From Eledone cirrhosa (lineage: Eukaryota), in NCBI GenBank assembly GCA_964016885.1, contig OZ024747.1, forward strand, positions 81,220,001 through 81,284,000: a stretch of 64,000 nucleotides of DNA, written 5' to 3'. This document shows positions 5,021 through 63,610 of the stretch, in pieces. A model generated the notes under the pieces. The model saw only the letters and a list, made by a program, of their open reading frames with translations. It was not told the origin of the DNA and searched no databases. Made by a program: the position numbers and the translations under genes. The stretch's first letter is position 1. The number at the start of each line of letters is the position of its first letter.

Positions 5021-5917
5021 AATAAATATATATATATATATATATATAAATTTTCATGTACATATTGGTATCTATATATGAAATTTGAATTGTAGTCATC
5101 TACAAATGACCATAGTAATATGAGTTGATAACTATAGATAATAGTGGAAAAATGTAGCTTGAATCACCTGGAAGGGATAGCCCCCTCCCTCCGATTCTAA
5201 GTAATTGCATTAAACAGTATGCTAATGAGCCATTGGCCATTTTTGCTGTCTGGTTGACACAATAATTATTGGGAAAATTTCGAATTTGAAATATAGTCAT
5301 CCCTACACAATTGACCATAATAACAATAGTTGCGAAAATCCGGCATTTGTGTCCAGTACTCAAATATACTGCAGCTCATCAAAGGTGCATCTATAGTAGA
5401 TATAATACATAGAATAATGTATAAATGTCAGGAAATTTAACAGTGTAGGAATTATCATATACATACAGACACATGTGTGCAAGTGTATGGAGGGGGAATA
5501 TCAGGTGTAGTTTGGTGAATTTAGGGAAGCATGGAAGTTTTGAAGGATGCAGTGTCCTGACAGCTAAACACTGATAGAGATGGTTTGTTCCATGCTTCAG
5601 AAATTCTGAGCATGAAAAAATATTCAGAGTTACTTTACCTGGTTTTCTCAGTGACAGACTATTGTTATGATCATTTGAAATAGGACAATTACACTTCAAA
5701 TTAAAAATGTTCCTAATGCTTCTGAAATCAGCCAAGTGTTTACACTTCTAACTATGTACAGGCTTAAAATATTTAAAAAATACATATAGTCCAGCAGCTC
5801 CGTAGCATACTGGTTAATTCAATACACTGGCCTCTGATAGTTGCATGCTTCAATTACTCACAGGCACCTCTGTCCAATTCTTTCCATCTTCAGGTCTATT
5901 TCTCAATTATTATTAAT

Positions 5918-6102
5918 AATTGTTTCTACTTTTGGCACAAGGCCAGCAAATACCCAGTGTATTACTGGTACTTTATTTTATCGACCCCGTAAGGATGAAA
6001 GGCAAAGTTAACCTCGGCGGGATTTGAACTCAGAATGGCAAGGGCCATAACTCTATGCGTCAAAGCATGGCATCCGACCCTCTACCGATACTGCCAATCC
6101 AC
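5918..6102 (-). mobile_element. tRNA-derived SINE (abundant Octopus-type family)
   Basis: Minus strand has an A-box-like TGGCAGTATCGG, a B-box GAGTTCAAATCCC and the conserved body actttgcctttcatccttacggggtcgataaaataaagtaccagt. Many copies occur in the window. Confidence 0.85.
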
Positions 6103-9745: not shown

Positions 9746-10490
9746 ATTGTATAAAAGTTATATAATAAAGGAATAATGGTAAACACAATCCAAGAGGCTA
9801 AAAAAAAACAGAAAAATGTTTTTGACCTGAAGGCGGTCAGGGCCAGTAGTTGTCAATTTGGCTGACCACCTTAAAATATATATATATATATATATATATA
9901 TACTGACTTGCTGACCAATCACTCCTCAATGTAAAGGCACTAATGTGTCGGTAACAGAGAGATCTCACAAGATATTATTGGTACAACAATTTACTTATCT
10001 TGTACAAAAAAAAACCCTACAGAGCAAAGAATCAGTTAGAACAATGAAATATTACTTTATATTAGCAATACACAATTCTACTGACATGCCCAAACAACTG
10101 CTGTTTCTTGTTCTGAAGAAAGGTGATAATTACCACAATTAAATGGATAATCATCAGTGGGCCAATCTTAATCAATCAATCCATTAATTAATCAATTAAT
10201 TAATTAACGAAACATACAAGACATCAACTGTCCATGAATAAGTGAGAGACAAGACCTAAACCTATGCTGCATGTCAGGCAACCTGCCAGGGACTTCTAGA
10301 ATCATGGATAGTGGAAGGCAGGGGGAATACAATATATGGCACTGTACCAACAATGAAGCACTCAACCAATGCTTTTGAACATGGGAATTATTATAATGAA
10401 GATATTGGTATATAAAATATATATGCCAACTAGCTGACCCTCACTGTAAAGGTGCAAAAATTACCGAAACGTGTATATGTACATATGTAT

Positions 10491-10668
10491 AATTGTTTCT
10501 ACTTTTGGTACAAGGCCAGGAAATACCCAGTGCATTACTGGTGCTTTATTTTATCGACCACGTAAGGATGAAAGGCAAAGTTAACCTCAGCTGGATTTAA
10601 ACTCAGATCGTAAAGGGCCGTAACTATGCTGCAAAGCATGGCATCCGACGCTCTACCGATACTGCCAA
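10491..10668 (-). mobile_element. tRNA-derived SINE, same family as 5918-6102
   Basis: High identity to 5918-6102. Confidence 0.85.
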
Positions 10669-14519: not shown

Positions 14520-17462
14520 CCTGGGTATGACATTAAACTACATCCAGTGGCAAGGCTCCAGTTCGGGAGTTCAGGAGCTGTGGGGAATGTGGAGTTACCC
14601 TTAGTTGTCATAACTCCCAGGTCTGCTCTGGCCCGGAGTAGTAGTACCTGTTAGGGCCCCATTTATGGGTTAAATAACTACCTTATTTGAGTGGCGCTGG
14701 TAAGGTATTGTCAGCCATTGAAAAGAAATATGGAGAGTCGATCTAACAGCACTAGGGTTAGAGCCCCTAATTACACTGTCAAGGAGAAATCTGGTCATTA
14801 TGACTCTGCTGGCTTAGAGCCACAGAGAGTGCCAGTAGATGATGGATCAGATGTCTCTGAGACAAATATAAAGAATGCAGTTTTGTCCTGCAGAAGAGCC
14901 ATCAAATTGGGCACTTTGAATGTGAGGACTATTCGGACGCTGGAGAAGAGAGAGGAGTTGGGACATCTGTTCGAGGAGAGTAGTATACAGATACTTGTGA
15001 TCCAAGAACACAGGATCCTACACGATGAGCCCGTGAGGAGTGTGATGATTGGGAAGAGGAGCCAGCTCATCACCAAATCGGCAGTGAGGAATATGACCAA
15101 TGCTGCAGTGGGAGGAGTGGGTTTTGTTTTCAGCACAGTCTATTGGTAAGGGAAATAATTCCTGTCTCCCCGTGAGTGTTGAGGGTAACCTTCAATGGAA
15201 ACCCAAGACTGACAGTCATCTCAGCCTATAGTCCAACCGAGGAAGACAGTGATGTGAGTGTGGAAGAGTTCCATGAGGAGGTGTGTAGAGTTGTCAACAC
15301 CACTCAAGCACACAAAATCCTGCTTGTTTTGAGGGACTTCAATGCATATGTGAATAAGGGGGGCAGTGAAGGTCCTTGCTTGTACTTCCATAACAACACT
15401 AACCGAAATGGAAGACTACTGAGAGACACCCTGCTGGAGGCGAACTTGATAGCGACCAACCTAAGGTTTAGGAAGATGTGGACCTACATCTCAGATATGC
15501 ACCTGTCCAAGTCCCAGATTGATTTCATTCTGGTGAGGAAAAAGTGGCGGAATAGTGTTCTGAACACAGAACCATACAACTATTTCAGTACACTGGGTAG
15601 TGACCACCGACTTGTTATGAGTGAGGTCCGGGTGAGCTTAAGAAAGAGCAAGGCTCAGCCCCGGAGAGCAATCTATGACTGGGGAGCTTTCAAGGAAGAT
15701 GATAAGCTACAGGAGAGGTTCACAGTGGAAGTGAGGAACAGGTTCACTGCTCTGTGTGGAGAAACAGAGGAGAGGAGATTGGATGGACTGGGGAGAGTGT
15801 GATGAGGAGGTACGGACACTTCACCAATGCAGTGGCGGAAGCAAGTGAAACCCTGGTGCCGAGGAAAAAGAACAAAAGAAAGCATGTCAGCTCTGCAAAC
15901 CCAAAAGTGTGTGCAGCCAGAGAACACCTGAAAGCTGCCAAGGACCAATTCTAAGCTGATCCTACGGAGGAGAGGATGGAGTCTGTGGAGGTGATGAGGG
16001 AAGAACTCTGTACCGCTTACACTGTGGCCAGAGAAGAGGCACTGATAGAGAAGATCAGAAGTGTGGAGAGGGCAGTTGACAGATTTGGATGTAAGGAGAG
16101 CTGGATGATCATCAACGAGATCACATGGAGGAAGAGAAGGTGTTCGAGTCAGATCCAGGGAATGGGGCACGAGGATAGGAAGAGGAAATGGCTAGACCAT
16201 TTTAGCACCCTACTAGGAGAGCCACCCTCCACAGCCCAGAGCACTGGGGAAATCAGGCGGCTGTTTGAGGAACTGGATATTGAGACAGCCTGAGATGGAG
16301 AAGAAGCTCAGGGACAACCAGAACGGCTTCAGAGAGGGAAGATCAACCACCAGTCACATCCTGATGCTGAGGAGGTTATTAGAGGGAGCTAGAGCAAAGT
16401 GCCTTCCTGCGGTCATGGTTTTCATTGACTTTAGGAAGGCCTTTGATTCTGTGGACCGTCACTGCCTGATGAAGATCTTACAGGCTTATAGAATCCCCAA
16501 GAGGATAGTGGACCTGATATCACTGCTCTACACCAACACCAAAGCCCAAGTTATTACACCTGATGGGATGACAGTTCTTTGAGATACTGGCTGGAGTGCT
16601 CCAGGGAGATACATTGGCTCCCTACCTTTTTATGATCGTAGTGGACTATTGTATGCGCCTTGCACTGGAGAAACACCAGGACCCTGGCTTTACTGTAGCA
16701 TTAGCTCAGAGCAGGAGAATTAAGGCGAAAAAGGTATCAGATGCTGAATTTGCCGACGACATAGTTTTGGTGACAAATACAGTGAAGGAGGCAGAGGATT
16801 TGATGCGGGAGGTTGAGACTGTGTCGATGAGTGTGGGGCTGAGAATGAATAAGACTAAAACAAAATATCTGGTGGAGAATGTTGAGAAGCCAGAGGGGAT
16901 CACTAATGTAGGCGGGAAGCTGCTAGAATTGGTTGAGGACTTCCTGTATTTGGGAGCAAAGATTGGGAATACGGAAGATGATGTGGTTGAGAGGAAGAGC
17001 AAAGCCTGGGCAGCGTGCCACAGCTTGACATCGGTGTGGAAGTCGGACCTTCGTAAAGACCTGAAAATCCGCCTCTTCATTGCTGTAGTGGAGTCTGTGC
17101 TGCTGTACGGGTCTGAGACTTGGACACTGAACAAGAAACTCACTCAGATGGTGGATGGGTGCTACACGAGGATCCTGGGGATGGCTCTGAACATTAATCA
17201 GTATACACTGAGGATGAAAAACACAGAGCTGTATGGGAGCCTCCCAAATGTCAGCTCAAAAGTGACAGAGTTGACCTTGCACTCAGTGCTCCTGTGGGAG
17301 CCCCTACATGGACACACTGGAAGAGGAGACCAAGGTTAACGTATGTTGATGCCCTGAGGACAGACACTGGTCTGTTGGATACGCAGGACATGGCAGCGAT
17401 AATGAAGGACAGAGACCGCTGGAGAGAACTCATCCATGGATCTTGAGAATTTTACAAGCCCT
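14520..17462 (+). mobile_element. Near full-length degenerate RTE-clade LINE (APE endonuclease plus RT)
   Basis: APE motifs GTLNVRT, IQEHR, ISAYSPT, DFN, QIDFIL, SDH. RT motifs QNGFR, FIDFRKAFDSV, QGDTLAP, FADD, FLYLG. Contains stops, frameshifts and an internal deletion near 16290; flanked by (TA)n. Confidence 0.92.
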
Positions 17463-17622
17463 AGATATATATATATATATAATATATATATAATATATAT
17501 ATATATATTATATATATAATATATATATATATAATATATATATATATAATATATATATATATATAATATATATATATATATAATATATATATATATAATA
17601 TAATATATATATATATAATATA

Positions 17623-17683
<61 letters not shown>

Positions 17684-17752
17684 TATAATATAGATATATA
17701 ATATATATATATAATATATATATAATATATATATAAATATATATATATATAT

Positions 17753-17785
<33 letters not shown>

Positions 17786-18168
17786 CTATATATATAATAT
17801 ATATATAATATATATATATATATAATATATATATAATATATATATATATAATATATATAATATATATATATATAAATATATATATATATAAATATATATG
17901 TAATATATATATATATATAATATATATATAATATATATGTAAAATATATATAATATATATGTAATATATATATATATAATATATATATATATAATATATA
18001 TGTAATATATATATATATATATATATAATATATATATATATATAATATATATGTAATATATATGTAATATATATATAATATATATATATATATAATATAT
18101 ATGTAATATATATATAATATATATGTAATATATATATGATATATATATATTACATATATTACATATAT
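17463..18168. repeat. Long degenerate (TA)n/(TAA) microsatellite; continues at 20752-21262 after the LINE insertion
   Basis: Directly visible. Confidence 0.95.
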
Positions 18169-20751
18169 ATGTTGCTTGGTGCTTTCGACAGTGAGGAGGA
18201 GCATCTGGAGTCGGACAGTGTGGAGGGACAGTGGAAATTTCTGAGGGCAAGCCTGCTGTTGGCGACAGACGAGGTCTGTGGCTGGAGCGGGCCTGTGGGC
18301 AGGGGGAGAGTGGCATGGTGGTGGAGCAGTGGGGTGGGGGGGTCAATTGGGGCCAAGGGGCGGGCTTGGAAGGTGTGGCGGGATGGGGGAGGTGGAGTGG
18401 ACTATCAGGTGGCCGGGGGGGAGGCTGGGAGAGGAGTGTACTTGGCAAGAGGGGAGGCTGGGGGGGGAAAGTTCAAGCGTGTTCTACAGCGCGATGACCA
18501 GGGGCGTGGGGTGTTCGGGATTGCCGGGCAGTGCGTCAAGGAGAGCCGTGATATTGTCGGGGAGAAGTGTGTGCTTGGCGATGATGGCATACTTGCCATC
18601 GCCGACACTGATAGGAGGGTGGCTTGGAAGTGTCACTGTGAAGGGCTGCTGAATGAGGAGAGTGAATGGGAGAAGGACGGTCTCCCCCATATCGACCCGA
18701 TAGAGGGACCAGCAGTGTTGGTCGAGGGGAGTATGATGGGTGGGGCAATCAAGGATATGAGGACTGGTGGGGCGGCTGGGCCTTCGGAAATGGTTGCTGA
18801 GATGCTGGGGGCATCTGGCACGGTGGGACACACCATGGTCACCCGCATAGTTAACCGGGTCGTGCAGAATGGGGTTGTTCCGAAGGACTGGCATGGCGGC
18901 ATCGTCGTTGACTGTTGTGAGGGTGAGGGGGACGCCCTAGATGGGAGTAACTATAGAGGCATTAAATTGATCGACCAGGTCATGAGGGTCACGGAGGGGG
19001 TGATGGCGCAACTGATCGGAGAGGGAGTTGATCTGGGTGAGATGCAGTTCGGGTTTGTGTCGGGCGGGGGCGCCACAGACGCTCTTTTCATGGTGCGACA
19101 ACTGCAGGAGAGGTGCCTGGCTAGGGGTGAACCCCTCTACTTGGCTTTTGTCGACCTGGAGAGGGCCTTCGACAGAGTCCCCCGCTCCATTGTCTGGTGG
19201 GCTCTTGGAAGGCTGGGCGTTGACGAATGGCTTGTGAGGGCTATGCAGGCCATGTGTGGGGGGACAGTCAGCAGGGTTGGAGTTGACAATGAGTATAGTG
19301 AGGAGTTTGGCGTGGGGGTTGGCGTCCATCGGGGCTCTGTTCTCAGCCCCCTACTGTTTGTTTATTATTGCCCTTCGGGCTGTGGCAGAGGAGTTCGGGA
19401 CAGGCTGCCCATGGGGGCTCCTGTGCGCGGACGGCCTGACACTCGTGGCGGAATCGATGGCCGAGCTGGAGAGGAGGTTCCAAACATGGAAGCGCGGCCT
19501 GGAGTCGGGGGGACTTAAGATTGGCCTGGCTGAGGCCGGGGTTCTGGTTTGTAGGAAGGAAAACAAGGCGGCGGTCCCTTCTGGGAAGTGGTCGTGCTCG
19601 GTGTGTAGGAGGGGCGTGGGTGGAAACTCCATCTTGTGTCCTAAATGCAAGGTGTGGGTGCATAGAGGATGTGGTGGGATCACAGGTAGGCTAACTAGGA
19701 GCATAGACTTTGCATGTGGCCGGTGTTCTGGTGCAGTGGGTGGCAGCGGGTGCCCACAAAATACTGGCTCTTTCGGTTGCGCAGAGGGTTCTATAGAAGT
19801 GGTGGACAGCTTCCGTTGCCTGGGCGATGGGGTCGGCAGTGGGGGAGGGTGCTCTGAAGGTACTGTGGCTGGAGTCGGAACTGGTTGGAGAGGGTTCAGA
19901 GAGCTTGTACCACTATTGGCTGCTAAAGGGTTCTCCCTAAAGATGAAGGGCAGGTTGTGCGATGCCTGCGTACGAGCAGCGATGTTGCATGGTAGTGGGA
20001 CCTGGGCATTGTGTGCAGAGGATATACGCAGACTGGAGAGGAACGAGGCTTGCATGCTCCGCTGGATGTGTAACGGTGATATACGTGAGCGGCAAAGCAT
20101 AGACGAGCTGAGGAGGAAATTGGAGATAAGAGGGATCAGATGTTGTTTGCTCGAGAGAGGGCTGCGTTGGTGTGGACACGTGATGCGCATGAGGGTCGAT
20201 AGCTGTATTACAAAGTGCAGGGCAATGGAGATGGACGGTGGCCACGGAATGGGCAGACCTAGAAAGACATGGGATGAGCTGATAAACTCCGACCTCACAC
20301 ACTTACACCTCTCCAAGACAATGTCACTGGACCGTGACCTTTGGCGGTGCTCAGTAACAGAGAAGACCCGCCTTGCCAGTAGGCATCTCTAACAAACTAC
20401 ACCCCGTCCCGCCACCACCCCCACCCCATCCACACCACCCCGTTCCATGTAAGGTTATGTTGGTGCCGCGCCATCCAGGCCGAAACAAACGAGATCGTGT
20501 AGGTGTCACGACAAAAAAACACACAGTCCACGCTGTAATGTGGCCGTGTAGGCAACACGGTAAAAACCTCCCAGACCCACACTGTAAATGTGGTTGGTGT
20601 TAGGAAGGGCATCCAACTGTAGAAAACCTGCCAGACAGTCCTATGCGAGCAAGACAATCACTCTTGCCTCAAGTGGGACTACCCCCGTCCAAACCCATGC
20701 AAGCGTGGAACACGGACGTTAAACGTTGATGATGATGATGATGATGATGAT
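18169..20751 (+). mobile_element. 5'-truncated RTE-clade LINE copy, A-to-G hypermutated
   Basis: RT motifs are recognisable but altered (NYRGIKL, QFGF, FVDLERAFDRV, HRGSVLSP, CADG, CLG). A 4-nt duplication causes a frameshift at ~19357. Ends in a 3' UTR and (GAT)n tail. Collinear with 42899-45460. Confidence 0.95.
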
Positions 20752-20790
20752 ATATATAATATATATGTAATATATATATAATATATATGT

Positions 20791-20821
<31 letters not shown>

Positions 20822-20824
20822 ATA

Positions 20825-20864
<40 letters not shown>

Positions 20865-20947
20865 TATATATAATATATATATGTAATATATATATAATAT
20901 ATATATATAATATATATATATATAATATATATATATATAATATATAT

Positions 20948-20991
<44 letters not shown>

Positions 20992-21028
20992 TATATATAA
21001 TATATATATATATAATATATATATATCT

Positions 21029-21067
<39 letters not shown>

Positions 21068-21265
21068 ATATATATATAATATATATTATATAATATATAA
21101 TATTATATAATATATAATATTATATAATATAATATATATATATATATTATATAATATATATATATATATATATTATATAATATTTAAATATAATATATAA
21201 TATATATATAATATTATATAACATATATATATATATAATATATATATATACAATATATATATAGT

Positions 21266-21413
21266 AATTGTTTCTACTTTAGGCACAAGGCCAGCAATTA
21301 CCAAGTGCATTACTGGTACTTTATTTTATCGACCCCGTAAAGATGAAAGCAAAGTCAACCTCGGCAGGATTTGAACTCAGATTGTAAAGGGACGTAACTA
21401 TGCTGGAAAGCAT
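21266..21413 (-). mobile_element. tRNA-derived SINE (5918 family), partial
   Basis: Conserved body and B-box. Confidence 0.8.
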
Positions 21414-26915: not shown

Positions 26916-27230
26916 ATACACACCACCTCTTTCAATGTAAAGTTATGTTGGTACCACAACATCCAGCCCGAAATAAATGAGGTTGTGTAGGTGTCACGAC
27001 AAAAAAAACACACAGTCCACGCTGTAATGTGGCCATGTAGGTAACACGGTAAAACCTCCCAGTTCCACACTGTAAATGTGGTTGGTGTTAGGAAGGGCAT
27101 CCAGCCATAGAAAACCCGCCAGACAGTCCTATGCGAGCAAGACAACCACTCTTGCCTCAAGTGGGAAAACTCCCGTCCAAACCCATGCAAGCGTGGAATA
27201 TGGACGTTAAACGATGATGATGATGATGAT
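26916..27230 (+). mobile_element. RTE LINE 3' UTR copy with (GAT)n tail
   Basis: Aligns with ~20430-20751. Confidence 0.85.
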
Positions 27231-28033: not shown

Positions 28034-28556
28034 TTATATATGTGTGTGTGTGTGAGTCCTGGGTTCAATCGGGCTTTCCTGATGATTTCTTTTGAATGAA
28101 ATAGTTCTTGTTCTGTAGAAGCCATTTCTATATTAAACATTATACACACACACACACACACGTTTATATATATATATATATATATATACATGCACTCATA
28201 CTCATACATACATGAATATTTGAATGAAATTGGAAAGTTGATAGGTAAATATTATATGAGGAGATTGGTTTTTATTTTGCCCAAACGTACCATAAGTTAA
28301 ACTATTATGAAGATGGCAACATTATGGCCTCATTGAACCATGGTTAGATTTATTTGTATTTTAATAATCTGATTGAAATAAATGAAAGAATAACTATCAT
28401 TGTGATTTAATGGACAAGGTTTTAGATAGTATTCAAGATATCATAATAAATTATTAAATGAATAAATATATAAAACAAGGACTTAACACTTCCTGTAAAT
28501 GCAGTCCATGATAGTTGAGTAAAACAAATGTCAAATCAAGAAATTATCATTATTAT

Positions 28557-28735
28557 AGACAGAATCAGTAGAGGGTTGGACGCCATGCTTTGCAACATAG
28601 AGTTACGGTCATTTACGGTCTGAGTACAAATCTCACCAAGGTCAACTTTGCCTTTCATCCTTATGGGGTCGATAAAATAAAGTACCAGTAATGCATTGGA
28701 GTAATTGCTGGCCTTCTGCCAAAATAGAAACAATT
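28557..28735 (+). mobile_element. tRNA-derived SINE (5918 family)
   Basis: Reverse orientation relative to 5918-6102; conserved body. Confidence 0.8.
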
Positions 28736-31165
28736 ATTTTATATAAAATCCTGTTTTAAGCTATGTTCCAAACATGAACTTAATTATGAGAAAGTTAGTA
28801 ATGTTACTAAATACCTCTAAATTCTTAAATTTTTGAAAATCATAGCCAGACTCTTTCATTAGTGGTAATGAAATGTTACACCCATTTCCTATTTGAATGA
28901 TTAGGTTTAATAAGAGAATTTAGTTTCACCATTGCTTGCTTTAATATTCCAAATTTTTTATATTCATTTTTGCAAATCATTCCAAATATTCAGATCCGAA
29001 ATGACTTGGTGTAAACTTCTTTACTTATGGAATATGTCTTCTGCACAACTGTTTTTATGTTAAAAGTTGATATTATTTCTCTGCTCAATGATAATTGGAG
29101 AATACATTTCAGTTATGGTACATGTAAATAGATTAGTGTCCTATTTATAGATATTTACCTCTCACTTAATGCACTAAAACTGGATCTGAAAACAATTTGT
29201 AGGAAACCTTGTAGTCCATTAAAATGATAGTGTGTATGTATATGTGAAAATGAATATTGGTCAAGTGAATACATTGGTCAAATAGATATGGCACAGCTTT
29301 CTTTGCAAAGACATCAAACTCTTCTAACTTTAATATGCTAATCTATTTTATGCTACCAAGAAAGGGGTAATTTAATTGTATATTACCTAAAGCTTGATTT
29401 AATTAAACTGTATTCGCCTACACTACTGAGTTTGAAGCTGCAAAATTTAATTGATACTTCCACAATTCCACCTACTTTTCTTGAATTCTAATGTCATACG
29501 ATTCAATTAACTGCTGTAGAATGAAACACTTTCTTTATGATGAAACACTATACTACTGGAAATGGACGGCTCTTTCTCTTGAAGTTATTATCTAAATAAT
29601 TTTTCTTAAATCAAACTTTATTACCTTTGAAAAAGGAGGGTCGTATTAGATGTAGTCATGGACTTGCAAAAGATGAGAAGGTTGACTTGGAGCAAAATAA
29701 CAGTATAATATATTCTTTAATGACTATAAATGTAGTTGATAGCTATTTTCTATATGAAGTTGATAGCTATTCTCTGGATAGCTATCAACTTCATATAGAA
29801 AATTGCAAGACATTAAAAATAATGAAGGTGGAAAAATATATAGTTAATCTAGTTGAGATAAAATACTATAGAAATATTCATGCTAGTGGCTGAGCCCACA
29901 GTATGACCACTGAAATATTGGCCTCTAATCCTAGTCTGAAAATCAGTCTAGAAGAGGGAAAAACTTACCCAAAACCCTATTATGGAATTTGAATTAAGTA
30001 TTATGGTTAACACTGTTAGAGAGTTGCTCAATTATGAGTCAAACAGTCTCATTGCCTTGTTATTTATACAGATAGCAGAAGGCTAATAGAAACAATTCTT
30101 ACAGAAATATCAGAGTGAGAACGTGCAGAGATTTCTGACAACTCTCGCATCCAGTCTCATCTCCAAATGCCATGGTCATGTCCTGTTATTAGATCCAGAT
30201 GACTTTAGAATGAATGTAAATGATACTGTGATACAGCACAAGTTCTCCCCACTTAAAGGTAAGTCATGTGCAAGTCATAATGTAATGCCCAACTGATGTG
30301 ATCTACTGACACTTTTGTTGCAGTAGTTTGGGTATCATGTGTATCAGTGATACTGAAATACTACTATTTTCACAGTTGTTTCACTTGTAAAGGCACACAG
30401 GAGCTGTAGTATAGGTGGAAGCAGTTGTGCTTTACAATTTTCTAATTCTCCGTACAGCTGTGTTGCTCATTAAAAAGCTGCATAAACAAAGACATGTTCT
30501 TCATTAATAACCAACGGCAGAACATGACACTAGTAACAGCATATTTTATATGAAATAAAAACTAGAGAATTATTCAATGTCTAACATACCTTGCTAGCTT
30601 CATTTCATTATTTTGTTGGTTTAAATACTTTTGAAAGAAACTTGTAGTCAATGAATGATTAAGTGTATAAACTCTTCAAATAATATATGAGCAGGCTAAA
30701 TATAAGATTATTGAAGAAAGGGGAAGAAATTGTAAGTAGATCTTAGATCTTCATTCTCTTTATCTTACTAGTAATTAAACTGCTTAATAACAATCTGATC
30801 CTTATTTGAAAGTAAATCCAGCTAGTGTTCATAAAATTAATTTCAAACCTTATAAACTTGATGAGTAACATCAATAATACTATAGTATAGAGAAAGAAAA
30901 GAAACCTACAAAGCTCAATATTCAGAAAATGTCTATGTTGGATACAATATACCAAGGAAATGGACAGCATCTTGATATTATGACTGCAATGAATAAAGGA
31001 ACAATTAAAGCATTAGAAAGATAGACAACCAAGTCTAGATGGAAGAAGTATAAAAATATAGTGAAAGAAAGGTACACACACATACACACACACACACATT
31101 CCAACCCTTGCTAGCAGAAAAGGCAGATGATAAAATGACAATGATGATGATAATGGTGATACATA

Positions 31166-32309: not shown

Positions 32310-32613
32310 TATGTACACACATATACATGCTATGCTTTTGTCATTAAGATGTCTCAAAAAGTATCTTCTTTATATATATACACCAATCATTTCCAATGAT
32401 GAAAGTACTTTAAAGAACTTGCCTTAAGAAGTTATTACAGCAATCATTTTTAGTAATAACAATGAGTTTCAGTAGAAATGCAATCAGAAAACTTAATTAA
32501 ACTCTTTATGCCGACAATATTCCTTTCACCATATCTTAAAATGATTAAAACATTTGAAAACAGATAACTAATTATTCATATTAATTTTACCAAAACATGA
32601 TTAAAATTGTATA

Positions 32614-32829
32614 ATCATCATCATCATCATCATCATCGTTTAACGTCCGTGTTCCACGCTTGCATGGGTTTGGACGGGGGTAGTCCCACTTGAGGCAAGA
32701 GTGATTGTCTTGCTCGCATAGGACTGTCTGGCAGGTTTTCTACAGTTGGATGCCCTTCCTAACACCAACCACATTTACAGTGTGGGTCTGGGAGGTTTTT
32801 ACCGTGTTGCCTACACGGCCACATTACAT
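32614..32829 (-). mobile_element. Young 5'-truncated RTE 3' end with (GAT)n tail
   Basis: Essentially identical reverse complement of ~20535-20751. Confidence 0.9.
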
Positions 32830-42057: not shown

Positions 42058-42094
42058 TATATATATATATATATATAGTAATAATAATAATAAT

Positions 42095-42275
42095 AATTGT
42101 TTCTGGCACAAGGCCAGCAATTATCCCAGTGTATTACTGGTGCTTTATTTTATCGACTCCATGAGGATTAAAGGCAACGTTAACCTCAGCGGGATTTGAA
42201 CTCAGATCATAAAGGGACGTAACTCTATGCTGCAAAGCATGGCATCAGACCCTCTACCGAGACTGCCAATCCACC
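42095..42275 (-). mobile_element. tRNA-derived SINE (5918 family)
   Basis: High identity to 5918-6102. Confidence 0.85.
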
Positions 42276-42395
42276 AATAATAATAATAATAATGATAATA
42301 ATGTTTTTTAGATTCAGAAGATCCCGTTAAGGGTGAAAGCAGCGATTCTTTGCTTAAACTTTAATCTGTTATTTTAATAAATATATATATATATG

Positions 42396-42800: not shown

Positions 42801-42898
42801 TTAAGGCATATATATATATACACACCTTAAATATATACCTTAAATAAAATAGTTGTAAATATTGTGAAGGTATTTCTTCTTGCAAAACTTTAGAAAAG

Positions 42899-45460
42899 GG
42901 GTGTATTTTGTTAGAGATGCCTACTGACTGTAGTAGGTTTTACTTTGTATTTAGGTAAGGCGGGTCTTCTCTATTACTGAGTACCGCCAAAGGTCTCGGT
43001 CCAGTGACATTGTCTTGGTGAGGTGTAAGTGTGTGAGGTCGGAGTTTATCAGCTCGTCCCAGGTTTTTCTGGGTCTGCCTATTCCGTGGCTACCATCTAT
43101 CTTTATTGCCCTGCACTTTGTTATACAGCTATCGTCCTTCATGCGCATCACGTGACCATACCAACGTAGCCTTCTCTCGAGTAAACAACATCTGATCCCT
43201 CTTATTTCTAATTCTTTCCTTAGTTCGTTTATGCTTTGTCGTTCACGTATATTACTATTACACATCCAGCGGAGCATGCAAGCTTCGTTTCTCTCTAGTC
43301 TGCGTATATCCTCTGCACACAATGCCCAGGTCTCACTGCCATGCAACATTGCTATTCATATGCAGGCATCGTACAACCTGCCTTTCATTTTTAGGGACAA
43401 CCCTTTAGCGGCTAATAGTGGTATAAGCTCTCTGAACTTTTTCCACCCAGTTCTGACTCTAGCTACTGTACTTTCAGAGCACCCTCCCCCACTGCTGATT
43501 TTGTCACCCAGGTAACGGAAGCTGTCCACTATTTCTATAGAACCCTCTGCGCAGTTGAAAGAGCTAGTATTTTGTGAGCACTTGCTGCTACTTATTGCCC
43601 CAGAACACCGGCCACATGTAAAATCTATGTTCTTAGTTAGCTTACCTGTGATCCCACTACATCTTTTATGCACCCAAACTTTGCATTTGGGACACAAAAT
43701 GGAATTTCTACCTACGCCTTTCCTACACTCTGCGCATGGCCACTTCCCGGAAGGGACCGCCGCCTTATTTTCTTTCTTACAAACTAGAACTTTAGTCTTA
43801 GCCAGGTTAACTTTAAGGCCTTTTGATTCTAGGCCGTGCTTCCATGTTTGGAATTTCTTCTCTAGCTCGGCCATTGATTCAGCTATGAGCGTTAGATCAT
43901 CTGCGTATAGGAGTTCCCATGGGCAGCCGGTCTTGAACTCCACTGTTATAGCCTGGAGGGCAATAATAAATAGTAGGGGGCTAAGAACAGAGCCCTGATG
44001 AACACCAACTTTTACACTAAACTCTTCACTATATTCGTTGTTAATTCTAACCTTGCTGACTGTTTCTTTATACATGGCTTGTATAGCTCTCACAAGCCAT
44101 TCATCAACACCTAGTTTTCTAAGAGCCCACCAGATAATGGAACGGGGGACTCTGTCGAAGGCCTTCTCCAAGTCGACGAAAGCTAAGTATAGGGTTTACT
44201 TTTAGCTAGGTACTTCTCCTGTAGTTGTCGTACAATGAAAAGAGCGTCTGTGGTACTTTTTCCTGACACAAACCCGAACTGCATTTCATCTAGATCAATT
44301 CGCTCTCTGATTAGTTGCACTATTACTTTTTCCGTGACCTTCATGACCTGGTCGATTAATTTAATGCCTCTATAGTTACTCCTATCTAGGGCATCTCCTT
44401 TACCCTTATAACAGTTAACGATGATGCTGCTACGCCAGTCCTTCGGAACAACCCCATTCTGTATGACTTGGTTGACTATCCGGGTGACCATGGTGTGTCC
44501 CACCGCACCAGATGCCTTCAGCATCTCGGCAACTATTTCCGAAGGCCCAGCCGCCTTGCCTGCTTCATATCTTTGATTGCCTTACTGGTCCCTCTATTGG
44601 GTCGATGTGGAGAGACTGTCTTTCTCCCATTTATTCTCCTCATTTAGTAGCCTTTCATAGTGACACTTCCAAGCTACCTTCTTATCGGAGTCGGTGATGG
44701 CAAGTACGACGTCATCGTTAAGTACACACTTCTCCCCGACAATATCATTGTTTTCCTTGACACATTGCCTAGCAATCCTGAACACCTCACGTTTTTGGTC
44801 CTCATGTTGTAGAACATGCTTGAACTTTCTTTCCTCTGCTTCCCTTCTTGCGAAGTACACTTGTCTCCTAGCTTCCCTCCTGGCCACTTGATAGTCTTCT
44901 CTGCTTCCCCCATCCCGCCATACTTTCCAAGCCTGCTTTTTGGCCTTAATTGACCCCTCCACCTTACTGTTCCACCACCATGTTACTCTCCTCCTGCCTA
45001 CAGGCCTGCTCCAGCCACAGACTTCGTCTGCCGCCGTCAGCAGGTTTGCTTTCAGGAATTCCCACTGTTCCTCTACCTTGTACGACTCTAATTGCTCTTC
45101 CTTACTGTCAAAAGCATCAAGTAATATGCTTTGGAATTTATTTTTGGCTGTGGGGTCCTTTAGCTTCCATATTTTTCTCCTGAGGATAGTCCTCTTCTGT
45201 TGTCTAGTACGTCTCGTCCTGACTATTAGGTCGCTAATTATCAGTCTATGTTGGGAGGTGCATTCTTTATGGGGGAGGGATTTAGTGTTTACAACATTCA
45301 CTTTGTCACGTCTTCTGGTAAGGATATAATCTACCTGGCTGGTATGTTCCCCTGATCTGTAGGTGATCAAGTGATTGTCTCGTTTTTTGAAGTTAGTGTT
45401 GCAGATAGTTAGGTTATTTGCGTCGCAGAATTCTAGGATTCTGGAGCCTTCCTCATTTCT
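42899..45460 (-). mobile_element. 5'-truncated RTE-clade LINE with consensus-like sequence (partial APE, RT with embedded PHD-like finger)
   Basis: SQVDYIL, SQHRLII, NCYKGKGD, NYRGIKL, QFGF, EKAFDRV, HQGSVLSP, YADD and YLG are all intact; several indels. Confidence 0.95.
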
Positions 45461-45884: not shown

Positions 45885-46140
45885 CATGACGGAGAGGCGT
45901 CACAGAAAAAAGCACCCAGCACTCACTGTAAAGTGGATGTGTAGGTGCCATGGAAAAAAAGCACCTAGCACTAACTGTAAATGAGGTTGTTGTTAGGAAG
46001 AGCATCCAGCTGTAGAAATCAAGCCAGAATCAGTTCCCATATGAGCAAGACAAGATCAGCCGGACACTGCCCACAACAGGACAATCCGTCTAACCCATGC
46101 TAGCGTAGAAGAACGGACGTAAAACGGTGATGATGATGAT
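45885..46140 (+). mobile_element. RTE-type 3' tail element with (GAT)n
   Basis: Homologous to 63223-63480 (minus) and related to the 20500-20751 tail. Confidence 0.8.
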
Positions 46141-56027: not shown

Positions 56028-56470
56028 CACTATAAAGTGGTTGTGATGGTGATATGGCAAAAAGCACCCAGCCCACACTGTAAAGTGGTTGTGTAGGTTT
56101 TACCTGCAAAAAGCACCCAGTCCACACTGTAAAGTATTCGTCTATGGCAAAAGGGCCCCAGCCACACTGTAAAGTGGTCATGTAGGTGTCACACCAAAAA
56201 GCACCCAGTCCATACTGTAAAGTGTTCATCTATGGCAAAAGGGCCTCAGCCCACACTGTAAAGTGGCCATGTAGGTGCCACACCAAAAAGCACCCAGTCC
56301 ACACTCTAAATGTGGTTGGCGCTAAGAAAGGCATCCAGTTGTAGAAACCAAGCAAAGATCAGTTTTGTATGAGCATGACATGGTTACCTGACCTAGCATT
56401 GCTCACAACAGGATAACTCATCTAACCCACACCAGCAGGGAAATGAATGTTAAATGGTAATGATGATGAT
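56028..56470 (+). mobile_element. RTE-type 3' tail element with an expanded internal tandem array
   Basis: About 6 copies of caaaaagcacccagtccacactgtaaagtg, then the RTE tail and (GAT)n. Confidence 0.8.
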
Positions 56471-57699
56471 ATATATATAGATATTAATATTATTAGAAGA
56501 GTTTTGAAGCTATACTAGTGACTCGAGGACAAGAAGTTTTGTGCTTAACGAACAAGTCAGAATTAGTTTTAATGAAACCCAGTTTTGGTGAGTGCATAAT
56601 GTATGAAACTCCTTGTACTCAAGTCCTTGGTATAGCTTTACAACTATAATAAAATATACATCCTTCTACCCATGTACTGATTTTTGTTTCTCATACTTGC
56701 ACAGCCAAACTTATGTATTTATGTAGGTATGTCTGTATGAAGGTTTACCAATGCACAAACAGATTGAATAGTATTAATTTGGCATAAATTTTCTCCAAGT
56801 GATTATTCTGTGGATGTATCTGCCTTATACAAGCTGAAAGGACATGTAACACTATCAGGGCAAGTAAATCCTCAGCCTATGTCTCGATAGTGGTAAAGTT
56901 TAAATATACGTGTGGTGAATCTTAACACTAACATGCTAATTGCAACAAAGGCTGTTGTTAGATTGAAGAATTGTAAGAAGATAAAACTAGTGTGTGGAAT
57001 AGAGATAGTGAGTGTGTGTGCGAGGAGGGGTTGTAACTAACATAGAACACTATAATACAGCAAGGTGTTAATGTTAAATTTATCTCTTCTTATATTGATC
57101 TCTGTTGAAACAATTTAAGGTAAGACCACAGTTTCACAGAAGAAATACTCCTATTGATTGCAGACTTGAATGAATGGAAGGAAGAAAGGAAATTAAATAT
57201 TGATGACAATGAAGAAGACGAGAATGATCAACATGATGATACATATATTTCTTATTCCTACTTTCCATATTATTCCATCCTCTTAATATAGTTTCCTCAT
57301 TATTCAGCTTTTATTTATTGATGATGATAGTAGTGGCAGTGATGATGGCGATGATGATAGTGGTGTTAGTGATGGCAGTTGTGGTGATAAGCATTGAGAG
57401 GAAAAGGAGCAAGTGTATGCAATTTCAAATTCACTCTGGTCATACACATACATTATAGTTTTAATTAATCCTTCACATCCTATAATGAATAGTAGAATAT
57501 GTCTTAAAGCAGGTTTTGTTAATTCAAATGTTCATAGTATCTTTACTAGGGGCTGATTGTTGTGAAAAATTTGATGTGATGCAGTCATAGTGCTGTTGTG
57601 TACGTTTTAAGAGTGCCTTGCTAATGTAGAACACACTAAAGATTAAAGACAAACACCAACAACAAAAGTATATTGTGTCCATGATATATATTGGTTTCT

Positions 57700-63049: not shown

Positions 63050-63222
63050 CATTATATATATATAATATACTTTATATATATATATATAATATATGTATAT
63101 CTCCATATATATATCTATATATATATATATAATATACATTATATATATATATCTATATATATATATAATATACATTATATATATATATATAATATACATT
63201 ATATATATATAATATACTTTAT
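62563..63222. repeat. Degenerate (TA)n/tacattatata microsatellite; continues at 63612-64000
   Basis: Directly visible. Confidence 0.95.
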
Positions 63223-63610
63223 ATCATCATCATCACCGTTTTACGTCCGTTCTTCCACGCTAGCATGGGTTAGACGGGTTGTCCTGTTGTGGGCAGTGTC
63301 TGGTCGGCTGACGATGCCTTGCTCATACAGGAACTAATCTGGCTTGATTTCTACAGCTGGATGCCCTTCCTAACACCAACCTCATTTACAGTGAGTGCTG
63401 GGTGCTTTTTCGTGGCGCCTACACGTCCACTTTACAGTGTGGGCTGGGTGCTTTTTTTGCCGTGGCACCTCCACGACCACCTTGCGGTGGGGGGAGTGCG
63501 GGCATATTGTTTATATGCTTCAGCATGTACCCATGGGAGGTCGGGTACCCTGTATTACTGCGTGACGCCAGAAGTCACGGTCGTGTGTCATTGTCTTTGA
63601 GAGGTGTAGT
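63223..63610 (-). mobile_element. RTE-type 3' tail element inserted in (TA)n
   Basis: (CAT)n then cgttttacgtccgttcttccacgctagcatgggttagacgg; homologous to 45885-46140. Confidence 0.82.

Follow-up and report, generated by a model that had tools for sequence, protein, structure and literature searches.

A single copy of a LINE family in the genome of Eledone cirrhosa carries a dense, strand-specific set of A-to-G changes in a neighbor context characteristic of ADAR enzymes, and further copies of this kind lie elsewhere in the genome. The best explanation is that LINE double-stranded RNA (dsRNA) was hyperedited by ADAR and reverse transcribed into germline DNA, repeatedly but rarely, a reading to which we assign a probability of about 0.8. 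The preliminary description of the locus had proposed the retrotransposition of a hyperedited LINE RNA in the germline; the ADAR neighbor signature, independent edited copies, and an ADAR2-like gene in the genome now support that proposal. An A of the reference that is read as G is called an edit below.

The focal copy lies in a 64,000-nt stretch of one contig (the window), and the coordinates of its parts are collected in Table 1. Matches to the RVT_1 and PHD profiles indicate that it codes for a reverse transcriptase (RT) of the non-LTR type, and self-comparison of the window revealed no LTR-like structure. We take the family to belong to the RTE clade, an assumption drawn from motifs, the tail type, and the literature on RTE LINEs. 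A 27-letter degenerate motif of the ORF has 6,020 matches in the 3.0-Gb genome (1,796 contigs), which we count as at least 6,020 family copies; they lie in both orientations. An inverted copy in the window (the sister) reaches further 5' than the focal one, which is 5' truncated by comparison. A 49-nt word common to both flanks (18089-18137 and 20753-20801, the latter directly after the tail) is a possible target-site duplication, of low complexity, located within the microsatellite and 31 nt off the 5' junction; no exact-junction duplication of at least 8 nt was found at the flanks of the focal copy.

Table 1. Coordinates of the focal LINE copy, its flanks, and its inverted sister in the window
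Feature	Position	Strand	Remarks
Focal element, non-LTR retrotransposon truncated 5'	18169-20750	+	RT-domain and PHD-finger matches, (GAT)n tail
Hyperedited ORF body (RT domain, PHD-type finger)	18169..20270	+	264 of 679 A read G
4-nt insertion, local duplication, frame shifted	19355..19358	+	Sole indel within the element relative to its subfamily
ORF end and 3' UTR, almost unedited	20271..20745	+	2 of 138 A
Natural 3' terminus of the family, a (GAT)n microsatellite tail	20729..20750	+	Identical tail type on other copies
5' flank, (TA)n microsatellite, unedited	17466..18168	.	10 G in 703 nt
3' flank, (TA)n microsatellite, unedited	20751..21260	.	3 G in 510 nt
Inverted unedited sister, other young subfamily	42897..45460	-	Both ends truncated; lacks 3' UTR and tail; lacks 28 nt present in the focal copy

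Aligned with the sister (45127-42954, minus strand; 2,209 nt, 82% identity), the focal copy shows A-to-G changes at 269 of 717 A, G-to-A at 8 of 602 G, T-to-C at 32 of 477 T, and C-to-T at 21 of 401 C; copies of the sister's own subfamily are 99% alike. The spectrum was scored against a majority sequence built from the 29 genomic copies nearest to the focal one (L032-L060), which differ from that majority by a mean of 0.25% and carry 0 to 4 A-to-G changes each. Against this majority, 267 of 823 A are read as G (one of them, at 20749, sits in the tail and may be due to the alignment), while none of 692 G is read as A, the sense-strand mark of APOBEC-type DNA editing. Other changes amount to one C-to-T, no transversion, and T-to-C at 2 of 550 T, both at sites where the subfamily itself varies. 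The two directions, whose possible balance had been raised as an objection, are thus unbalanced at 267:0 (binomial p 8e-81). The earlier hand counts hold: 16 A-to-G, 0 G-to-A, and 4 other changes at 19801-19920 were reproduced exactly, and the 29 A-to-G among 61 A counted at 19141-19356 become 28 among 60, with 0 G-to-A and 10 C/T changes.

Since the 29 close copies carry 0 to 4 such changes, the focal copy is the derived one, as the preliminary description had argued from the loss of invariant motifs. The reverse, that the sister is a G-to-A-mutated copy, is ruled out by the A carried by 29 of 29 close copies. A functional subfamily sharing the same Gs, the other objection raised at the outset, is ruled out as well: the focal copy's best 39 other genomic matches are 87 to 88% identical, two Gs were tested and it alone among the 6,020 motif matches has them both, and its conserved motifs are lost. 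Apart from the A-to-G changes, it differs from L039 by 0.12% and is among the youngest copies of its subfamily. With next to no other change beside the 267, all of these must date from a single burst or from events close together.

The motif changes noted before are real (catalytic YADD to CADG at 19424, YLG to CLG at 19817, HQG to HRG at 19327, and NCYKGKGD to DCCEGEGD at 18910), and amino acids are altered in 148 of the 740 codons, none of which was turned into a stop codon. Non-synonymous sites were freely affected (172 of 520, and 93 of 188 synonymous sites). The edits are confined to the element: they begin 3 nt from the 5' junction, already at full density, continue at 21 to 55% per 100 nt up to 20266, and then drop to the low level of the 3' end (Table 1). 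Because density is full so close to the junction, a longer edited template was probably shortened during copying. A LINE of another family 700 nt upstream on the same strand is unskewed (19 A-to-G, 37 G-to-A).

The neighbors of the edited sites point to an ADAR. Within 18169-20270, A was edited after U in 95 of 150 instances (63%), after A in 120 of 223 (54%), after C in 31 of 130 (24%), and after G in 17 of 174 (10%; p 1e-28), and U>A>C>G is the textbook order of ADAR 5' neighbor preference. On the 3' side, the counts were 115 of 219 before G, 81 of 223 before A, 33 of 109 before C, and 34 of 126 before U (p 3e-6); the rate of 0.53 before G, compared with 0.27 to 0.36 before the other letters, is ADAR2-like. 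The triplets most edited were UAG (40 of 52) and AAG (52 of 72), those least edited GAC (2 of 34) and GAA (5 of 64). The deaminase domain PF02137 scores above the cut-off at four genomic loci, one of which (C6) holds a candidate ADAR2-like gene with the zinc-ligand motifs HAE, PCG, and SCSDK; a serine in it presumably occupies the S486 position, as we assume from sequence context. According to Eggington 2011 (PMC3113232), the 5' neighbor is the most influential one for ADAR, and ADAR2 prefers a 3' G in CAG, AAG, and UAG. Porath 2017 (PMC5625713) describes 5' G as depleted in all metazoans tested, ties the 3' G preference to Ser486 of ADAR2, and reports for octopus hyper-editing a weak 3' G preference, at 20 to 25% of sites; with a 3' G at 115 of 263 edited sites, the focal copy shows a stronger preference than the octopus figures given there. 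Neighbor preferences are also reported for squid RNA editing (PMC4384741).

Further A-to-G copies were sought in the genome, and each was tallied against its nearest unedited copy. Of 40 loci listed with a short edited query (18260-18480), 30 were examined; one, L062, has 81 A-to-G and 1 G-to-A, and the other 29 are not skewed. When the motif was searched with G fixed at 20047, all 23 matches were examined and five proved skewed: the focal copy, L062, L129 (28 A-to-G to 1 G-to-A), L132 (70 to 6), and L141 (70 to 0). The 18 unskewed matches include a borderline case, L140 (17 to 7). With G at 18943, two of nine matches were skewed, both already known copies; with G at 19673, three of 18 were, namely the focal copy, L241 (35 to 3), and L246, whose skew is moderate (35 to 11). 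The ADAR-like 5' context recurs in these copies: pooled over L062, L129, L132, and L141, edits follow A in 103 of 413 instances, U in 83 of 283, C in 37 of 300, and G in 26 of 297 (p 2e-12). In L062 alone, where edits are patchy, the neighbor bias is not significant (p 0.29 to 0.43), and edit patches switch on and off along both L062 and L241.

The focal set of edits recurs in no other copy. The edit sets of L062, L129, L132, and L141 differ pairwise, and the focal copy and L062 have 39 edits in common, with 154 and 41 private to each. This partial overlap indicates that the edited copies are separate events, and the spread of their background divergence, from 0.12% to about 4% (1.5 to 4% in the older ones), that they persist and age. 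The 3' end and tail are kept in L062, L129, L132, and L141, while L246 reaches the 3' end and L241 reaches position 20693. As in the focal copy, the last 200 nt are nearly unedited in L062, L132, and L141, though not in L129. A 2-kb inverted repeat adjoining L141 turned out to be microsatellite only. On the preferred reading, hyperedited RNA would have been retrotransposed no fewer than six or seven times in this family. Set against a total of at least 6,020 copies, the edited ones make up roughly 0.1%; this is good to an order of magnitude only, since six or seven is a lower bound and the total was counted with one motif and not at sites 20047 and 19673. In a second LINE family, whose copy in the window is not skewed, none of 19 motif matches was hyperedited; L218 has a light cluster (15 A-to-G, 3 G-to-A) with edits after 5' G at 0 of 185, and L220 has 8 A-to-G and 0 G-to-A.

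A mirror search with C fixed at 20050, meant as a negative control, gave 39 matches, of which 30 were fetched; the other 9 show the motif C alone. Two of those fetched are skewed in the opposite polarity: L150 has T-to-C changes at 63 of 119 T and one C-to-T, and L152 has them at 57 of 155 T and no C-to-T. Read on the antisense strand, sites are changed in 68 of 97 instances after U and in 5 of 38 after G (p 4e-11), which is the ADAR context. Both are internal fragments of 600 to 700 nt between microsatellites and have neither 3' end nor tail; of the 28 ordinary copies of this search, 26 reach the 3' end (compared with 0 of 2; Fisher p about 0.014, calculated by hand). A second mirror site gave two matches, both unedited; the antisense census covers these two sites only, and the ratio of sense to antisense copies is rough. 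Such antisense-edited fragments were unforeseen in the preliminary description. In the simplest reading, both strands of a duplex were edited, with sense RNA inserting by way of its tail and antisense pieces by a tail-independent route, and the capture of the antisense strand as tail-less cDNA is the least certain step of our proposal. Its rivals for these two fragments are editing in place and editing of cDNA within a hybrid. With these two, eight skewed copies besides the focal one, A-to-G and T-to-C together, lie at separate loci on six contigs.

Both rivals can be stated for the A-to-G copies as well. In the first, an unedited copy inserted, a host transcript folded onto an inverted copy (for the focal locus, the sister 22 kb away), ADAR edited this RNA, which then served as template for repair or conversion at the locus. 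The sister extends over all of the edited region and lacks the unedited 3' UTR, so that the edited range roughly matches its extent; editing drops at about 20270, no more than some 110 nt short of where homology with the sister ends (20377), which is what a local hairpin predicts. Editing in place would also account for the two strand polarities; the 3' junction of L152 occurs once in the assembly, where no source locus with a matching junction was found, and inverted family copies lie within a few kilobases of L150, L152, and L129. However, edits also occur, at 4 of 10 A, in the 28 nt of the focal copy that the sister lacks, the light editing of the last 200 nt recurs in three other copies, and the self-complementary (TA)n flanks are unedited. 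No inverted ORF copy was found in the 10 kb fetched around L062, the youth of the focal copy leaves little time for a second event, and both T-to-C pieces lack the 3' end that ordinary copies mostly reach. We therefore regard an origin at the locus itself as unlikely. Under the preferred reading, editing before insertion, the sister is an imperfect candidate, a possible but unlikely duplex partner of the focal transcript; thousands of copies in both orientations, together with the antisense-edited fragments, suggest that duplexes form.

The second rival places the deamination, by ADAR or another adenine deaminase, on the DNA strand of an RNA:DNA hybrid, either an R-loop or an RNA:cDNA intermediate. 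ADARs are reported to deaminate dA in hybrids with identical sequence preferences (PMC5389660), and editing of the cDNA strand would yield T-to-C changes such as those of L150 and L152. For the sense A-to-G copies, however, 2.1 kb of antisense RNA would have to lie on sense DNA and a 39% conversion would have to survive repair; ordinary priming should keep the tail intact, yet both T-to-C pieces are tail-less, and no copy with both polarities was seen among the skewed copies. We consider this route improbable. Errors of reverse transcription or of second-strand synthesis, provoked by a dNTP pool skewed towards low dATP, are more doubtful still in our judgment. Skewed pools cause such errors in vitro for retroviral RTs and would be expected to strike one copy with a strand-specific burst of a single type, in which slippage could favor a 3' G, but they do not explain why a 5' G is avoided sixfold and the order U>A>C>G is followed, a pattern repeated on both strands in other copies, or why edited patches start and stop along L062 and L241.

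The preliminary description had also called for the G-rich sequence to be found in raw DNA. Four sequencing runs were compared (X1, X2, X4, and X21), of which X1 and X2 come from one sample, of a kind not on record, and provide 1.4 billion letters of contigs each. Both contain a 328-nt contig in the G form on 18259-18586 that covers 49 edits, at depths of 34 and 29, and differs from the assembly at two other letters. Family contigs in the A form at 18943 are 7,100 to 8,000 times deeper; this ratio is close to the 6,020 copies and thus as expected of a single-copy DNA sequence. No piece in the four runs spans the element or either of its junctions, two heavily edited bins (19030-19118 and 19386-19474) have no depth, and wherever X4 and X21 have coverage, the form is A alone. 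The sample of X1 and X2 may be the assembly's own source, and as a single sample it does not demonstrate inheritance across individuals. Although the missing depth, the missing junctions, and the two other letters could be held in favor of an assembly or sequencing artefact, this is very unlikely given the single-copy depth in two runs, an enzyme-like context and a sharp confinement to the element that are not known error modes, and the eight further skewed copies, several of which have ordinary background divergence.

The following course of events would account for these observations. The transcript of an active LINE subfamily would pair with antisense LINE RNA along 2.1 kb or more, a partner that should be plentiful given thousands of copies in both orientations, and about 39% of its adenosines, the proportion seen in the copy, would be deaminated, probably by ADAR. 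Since the 3' end was nearly unedited, the LINE RT could still bind there, and it may have primed on a nicked (TA)n microsatellite, as the tail, the 5' truncation, and the flanks suggest. The RT itself would have been made before editing or supplied in trans, because inosine is decoded as G and the edited RNA would code for CADG in place of YADD and yield no active RT. By placing C opposite each inosine, the RT would fix the A-to-G changes on the sense strand, with copying ending at 18169; the resulting copy would be dead on arrival. The event probably took place in the germline or the very early embryo, since the copy is in the assembly at single-copy depth and older edited copies show 1.5 to 4% background divergence. 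The T-to-C fragments may be antisense-strand pieces of such duplexes that were captured as cDNA without the LINE tail.

The individual elements of this proposal have precedents. Kim et al. reportedly described A-to-G hypermutated retroviral genomes in 1996, and cases in avian retroviruses are known. There, too, A-to-G changes are fixed through reverse transcription, but in exogenous viruses or vectors in cultured cells and not in inherited endogenous LINE copies. ADAR hyper-editing of repeat dsRNA (PMC5625713) likewise produces dense A-to-G clusters in repeats, on either strand of the duplex and with strong 5' G depletion; as described there, it is known from RNA reads only, whereas the focal pattern is in genomic DNA and has a stronger 3' G preference than that paper's invertebrates. 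A known analogue is APOBEC G-to-A editing of LTR elements (PMC4866542, Knisbacher and Levanon 2016), where single germline copies carry hundreds of changes of one type, strand- and context-biased, that wreck the ORF. That editing is C-to-U on cDNA of LTR elements, while the changes described here are A-to-G, most likely on RNA, in a non-LTR element; that study, in which invertebrates served as the negative control, reports vertebrate sites by the hundreds of thousands, while edited copies are rare here. A trace survey (PMC2873906) treats A-to-G clusters as RNA editing and G-to-A clusters as DNA editing.

On the side of the element, the octopus RTE-clade LINE RTE-2_OV (PMC9115989, Petrosino et al. 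2022) is, by description and not by sequence, a comparable young and abundant LINE with an RT domain. Octopus RTE elements are reported there to be active, transcribed, and insertion-polymorphic, and the accessible portion of that article makes no mention of edited genomic copies. ADAR also meets LINE RNA in the restriction of human L1 by ADAR1 (PMC5224506, Orecchini et al. 2017). In contrast to the present case, that restriction is independent of editing: ADAR1 bound but did not edit ectopic L1 RNA, with no editing in over 2.5 kb, and its authors leave open the editing of endogenous intragenic elements. We found no description of ADAR-hypermutated LINE copies in a germline genome in the openly searchable literature, to which subscription journals and supplements do not belong, and prior mention is possible. 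Thus, the chemistry is known and an analogue is known; their combination is apparently undescribed, and the antisense class is unexplained.

A role in transposon defense, which the preliminary description had suggested, fares poorly as far as mutation is concerned: at a frequency of the order given above, the mutational route would be a leak or by-product, a fossil of editing and not the main defense. The edited LINE copies would be the ADAR counterpart, in a non-LTR element, of the endogenous retroviruses scarred by APOBEC. It is tempting, if tentative, to go further and suppose that edited sense RNA, by way of its spared 3' end, and antisense fragments, by tail-independent capture at (TA)n, both reach germline DNA. 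On that view, A-to-I editing would mutate any RNA that the LINE RT grabs, host transcripts included, in a recurrent, heritable, and strand-specific manner, and the genome would preserve the germline activity and site preference of ADAR as datable fossils.

Several questions become testable from assemblies alone, including whether active retrotransposon RNA is a target of ADAR in germ cells, with what frequency edited RNA undergoes reverse transcription, and whether elements are disabled in this way. It can also be asked whether part of the A-to-G substitution at edited sites in animals with heavy editing could stem from retro-copying. How much edited RNA is written back could be measured in any animal genome by a simple three-letter scan of its young repeats. 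RNA editing is usually held to be non-heritable, and the edited LINE copies of E. cirrhosa are candidate direct evidence of A-to-I edits entering germline DNA via retrotransposition.

Six other copies of the focal family, to which the hypermutated LINE of the window belongs, are likewise A>G-skewed (L062 to L246 in the table). These copies differ in age, and along both L062 and L241 the editing is patchy. Part of the 3' UTR of the edited copy L129 is duplicated in tandem, near the equivalent of focal position 20640. Two internal LINE fragments without tails, L150 and L152, are hypermutated from T to C instead, and at their T>C sites the ADAR context lies on the antisense strand. Read on the A>G strand, both flanks of L150 lack C and are rich in G; the flanks of L152 differ from each other, one having the same polarity as those of L150 and the other the opposite polarity. 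The flanks of these two fragments may be edited (TA)n.

Light A>G clusters were also found in the second LINE family, at L218, where a 5' G is avoided entirely, and at L220. The decayed member of this family in the window, which retains endonuclease and RT matches, displays no A>G skew versus its relatives; relative to them, G>A is in excess (37, vs 19 A>G).

The 31 nt directly preceding the focal 5' junction (18138-18168) include microsatellite units inverted with respect to the remaining flank, possibly a target-templated filler. In the unedited sister copy (42897-45460, minus strand), both ends are truncated, 28 nt are missing and frameshifts occur, even though its subfamily is 99% homogeneous; this copy is followed by an older related LINE 3' end (about 42800-42395). 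Many short copies with the 3' end of the focal family are present in the window (20428-20752, 26916-27230, 32610-32828, 45906-46140, 56237-56493, 63198-63478), of which the third matches the 3' end of the focal copy at 99% identity. They represent either extremely short copies of a LINE or SINE-like elements. An interspersed repeat of ~190 nt occurs in many copies and both orientations (5908-6102, 10480-10668, 21226-21413, 28543-28745, 42058-42287, and others).

The genome contains four loci with the adenosine-deaminase domain PF02137, one of them ADAR2-like, with the domain split over two exons.

Locations of LINE copies and adenosine-deaminase loci (C, assembly contig)
Feature	Location	Strand	A>G/G>A
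Focal family, A>G-skewed, L062	C3:120.34 Mb		
L129	C2:337.75 Mb		
L132	C3:27.99 Mb		
L141	C1199		
L241	C4:331.77 Mb		
L246	C11:39.53 Mb		
T>C fragment L150	C2:391.94 Mb		
T>C fragment L152	C3:106.93 Mb		
Second family, decayed LINE	window 14691-17450	+	
Second family, L218	C4:336.13 Mb		15/3
Second family, L220	C160		8/0
PF02137, ADAR2-like, L194/L195	C6:13.64 Mb		
PF02137	C1:146.45 Mb		
PF02137	C25:17.35 Mb		
PF02137	C1:320.73 Mb
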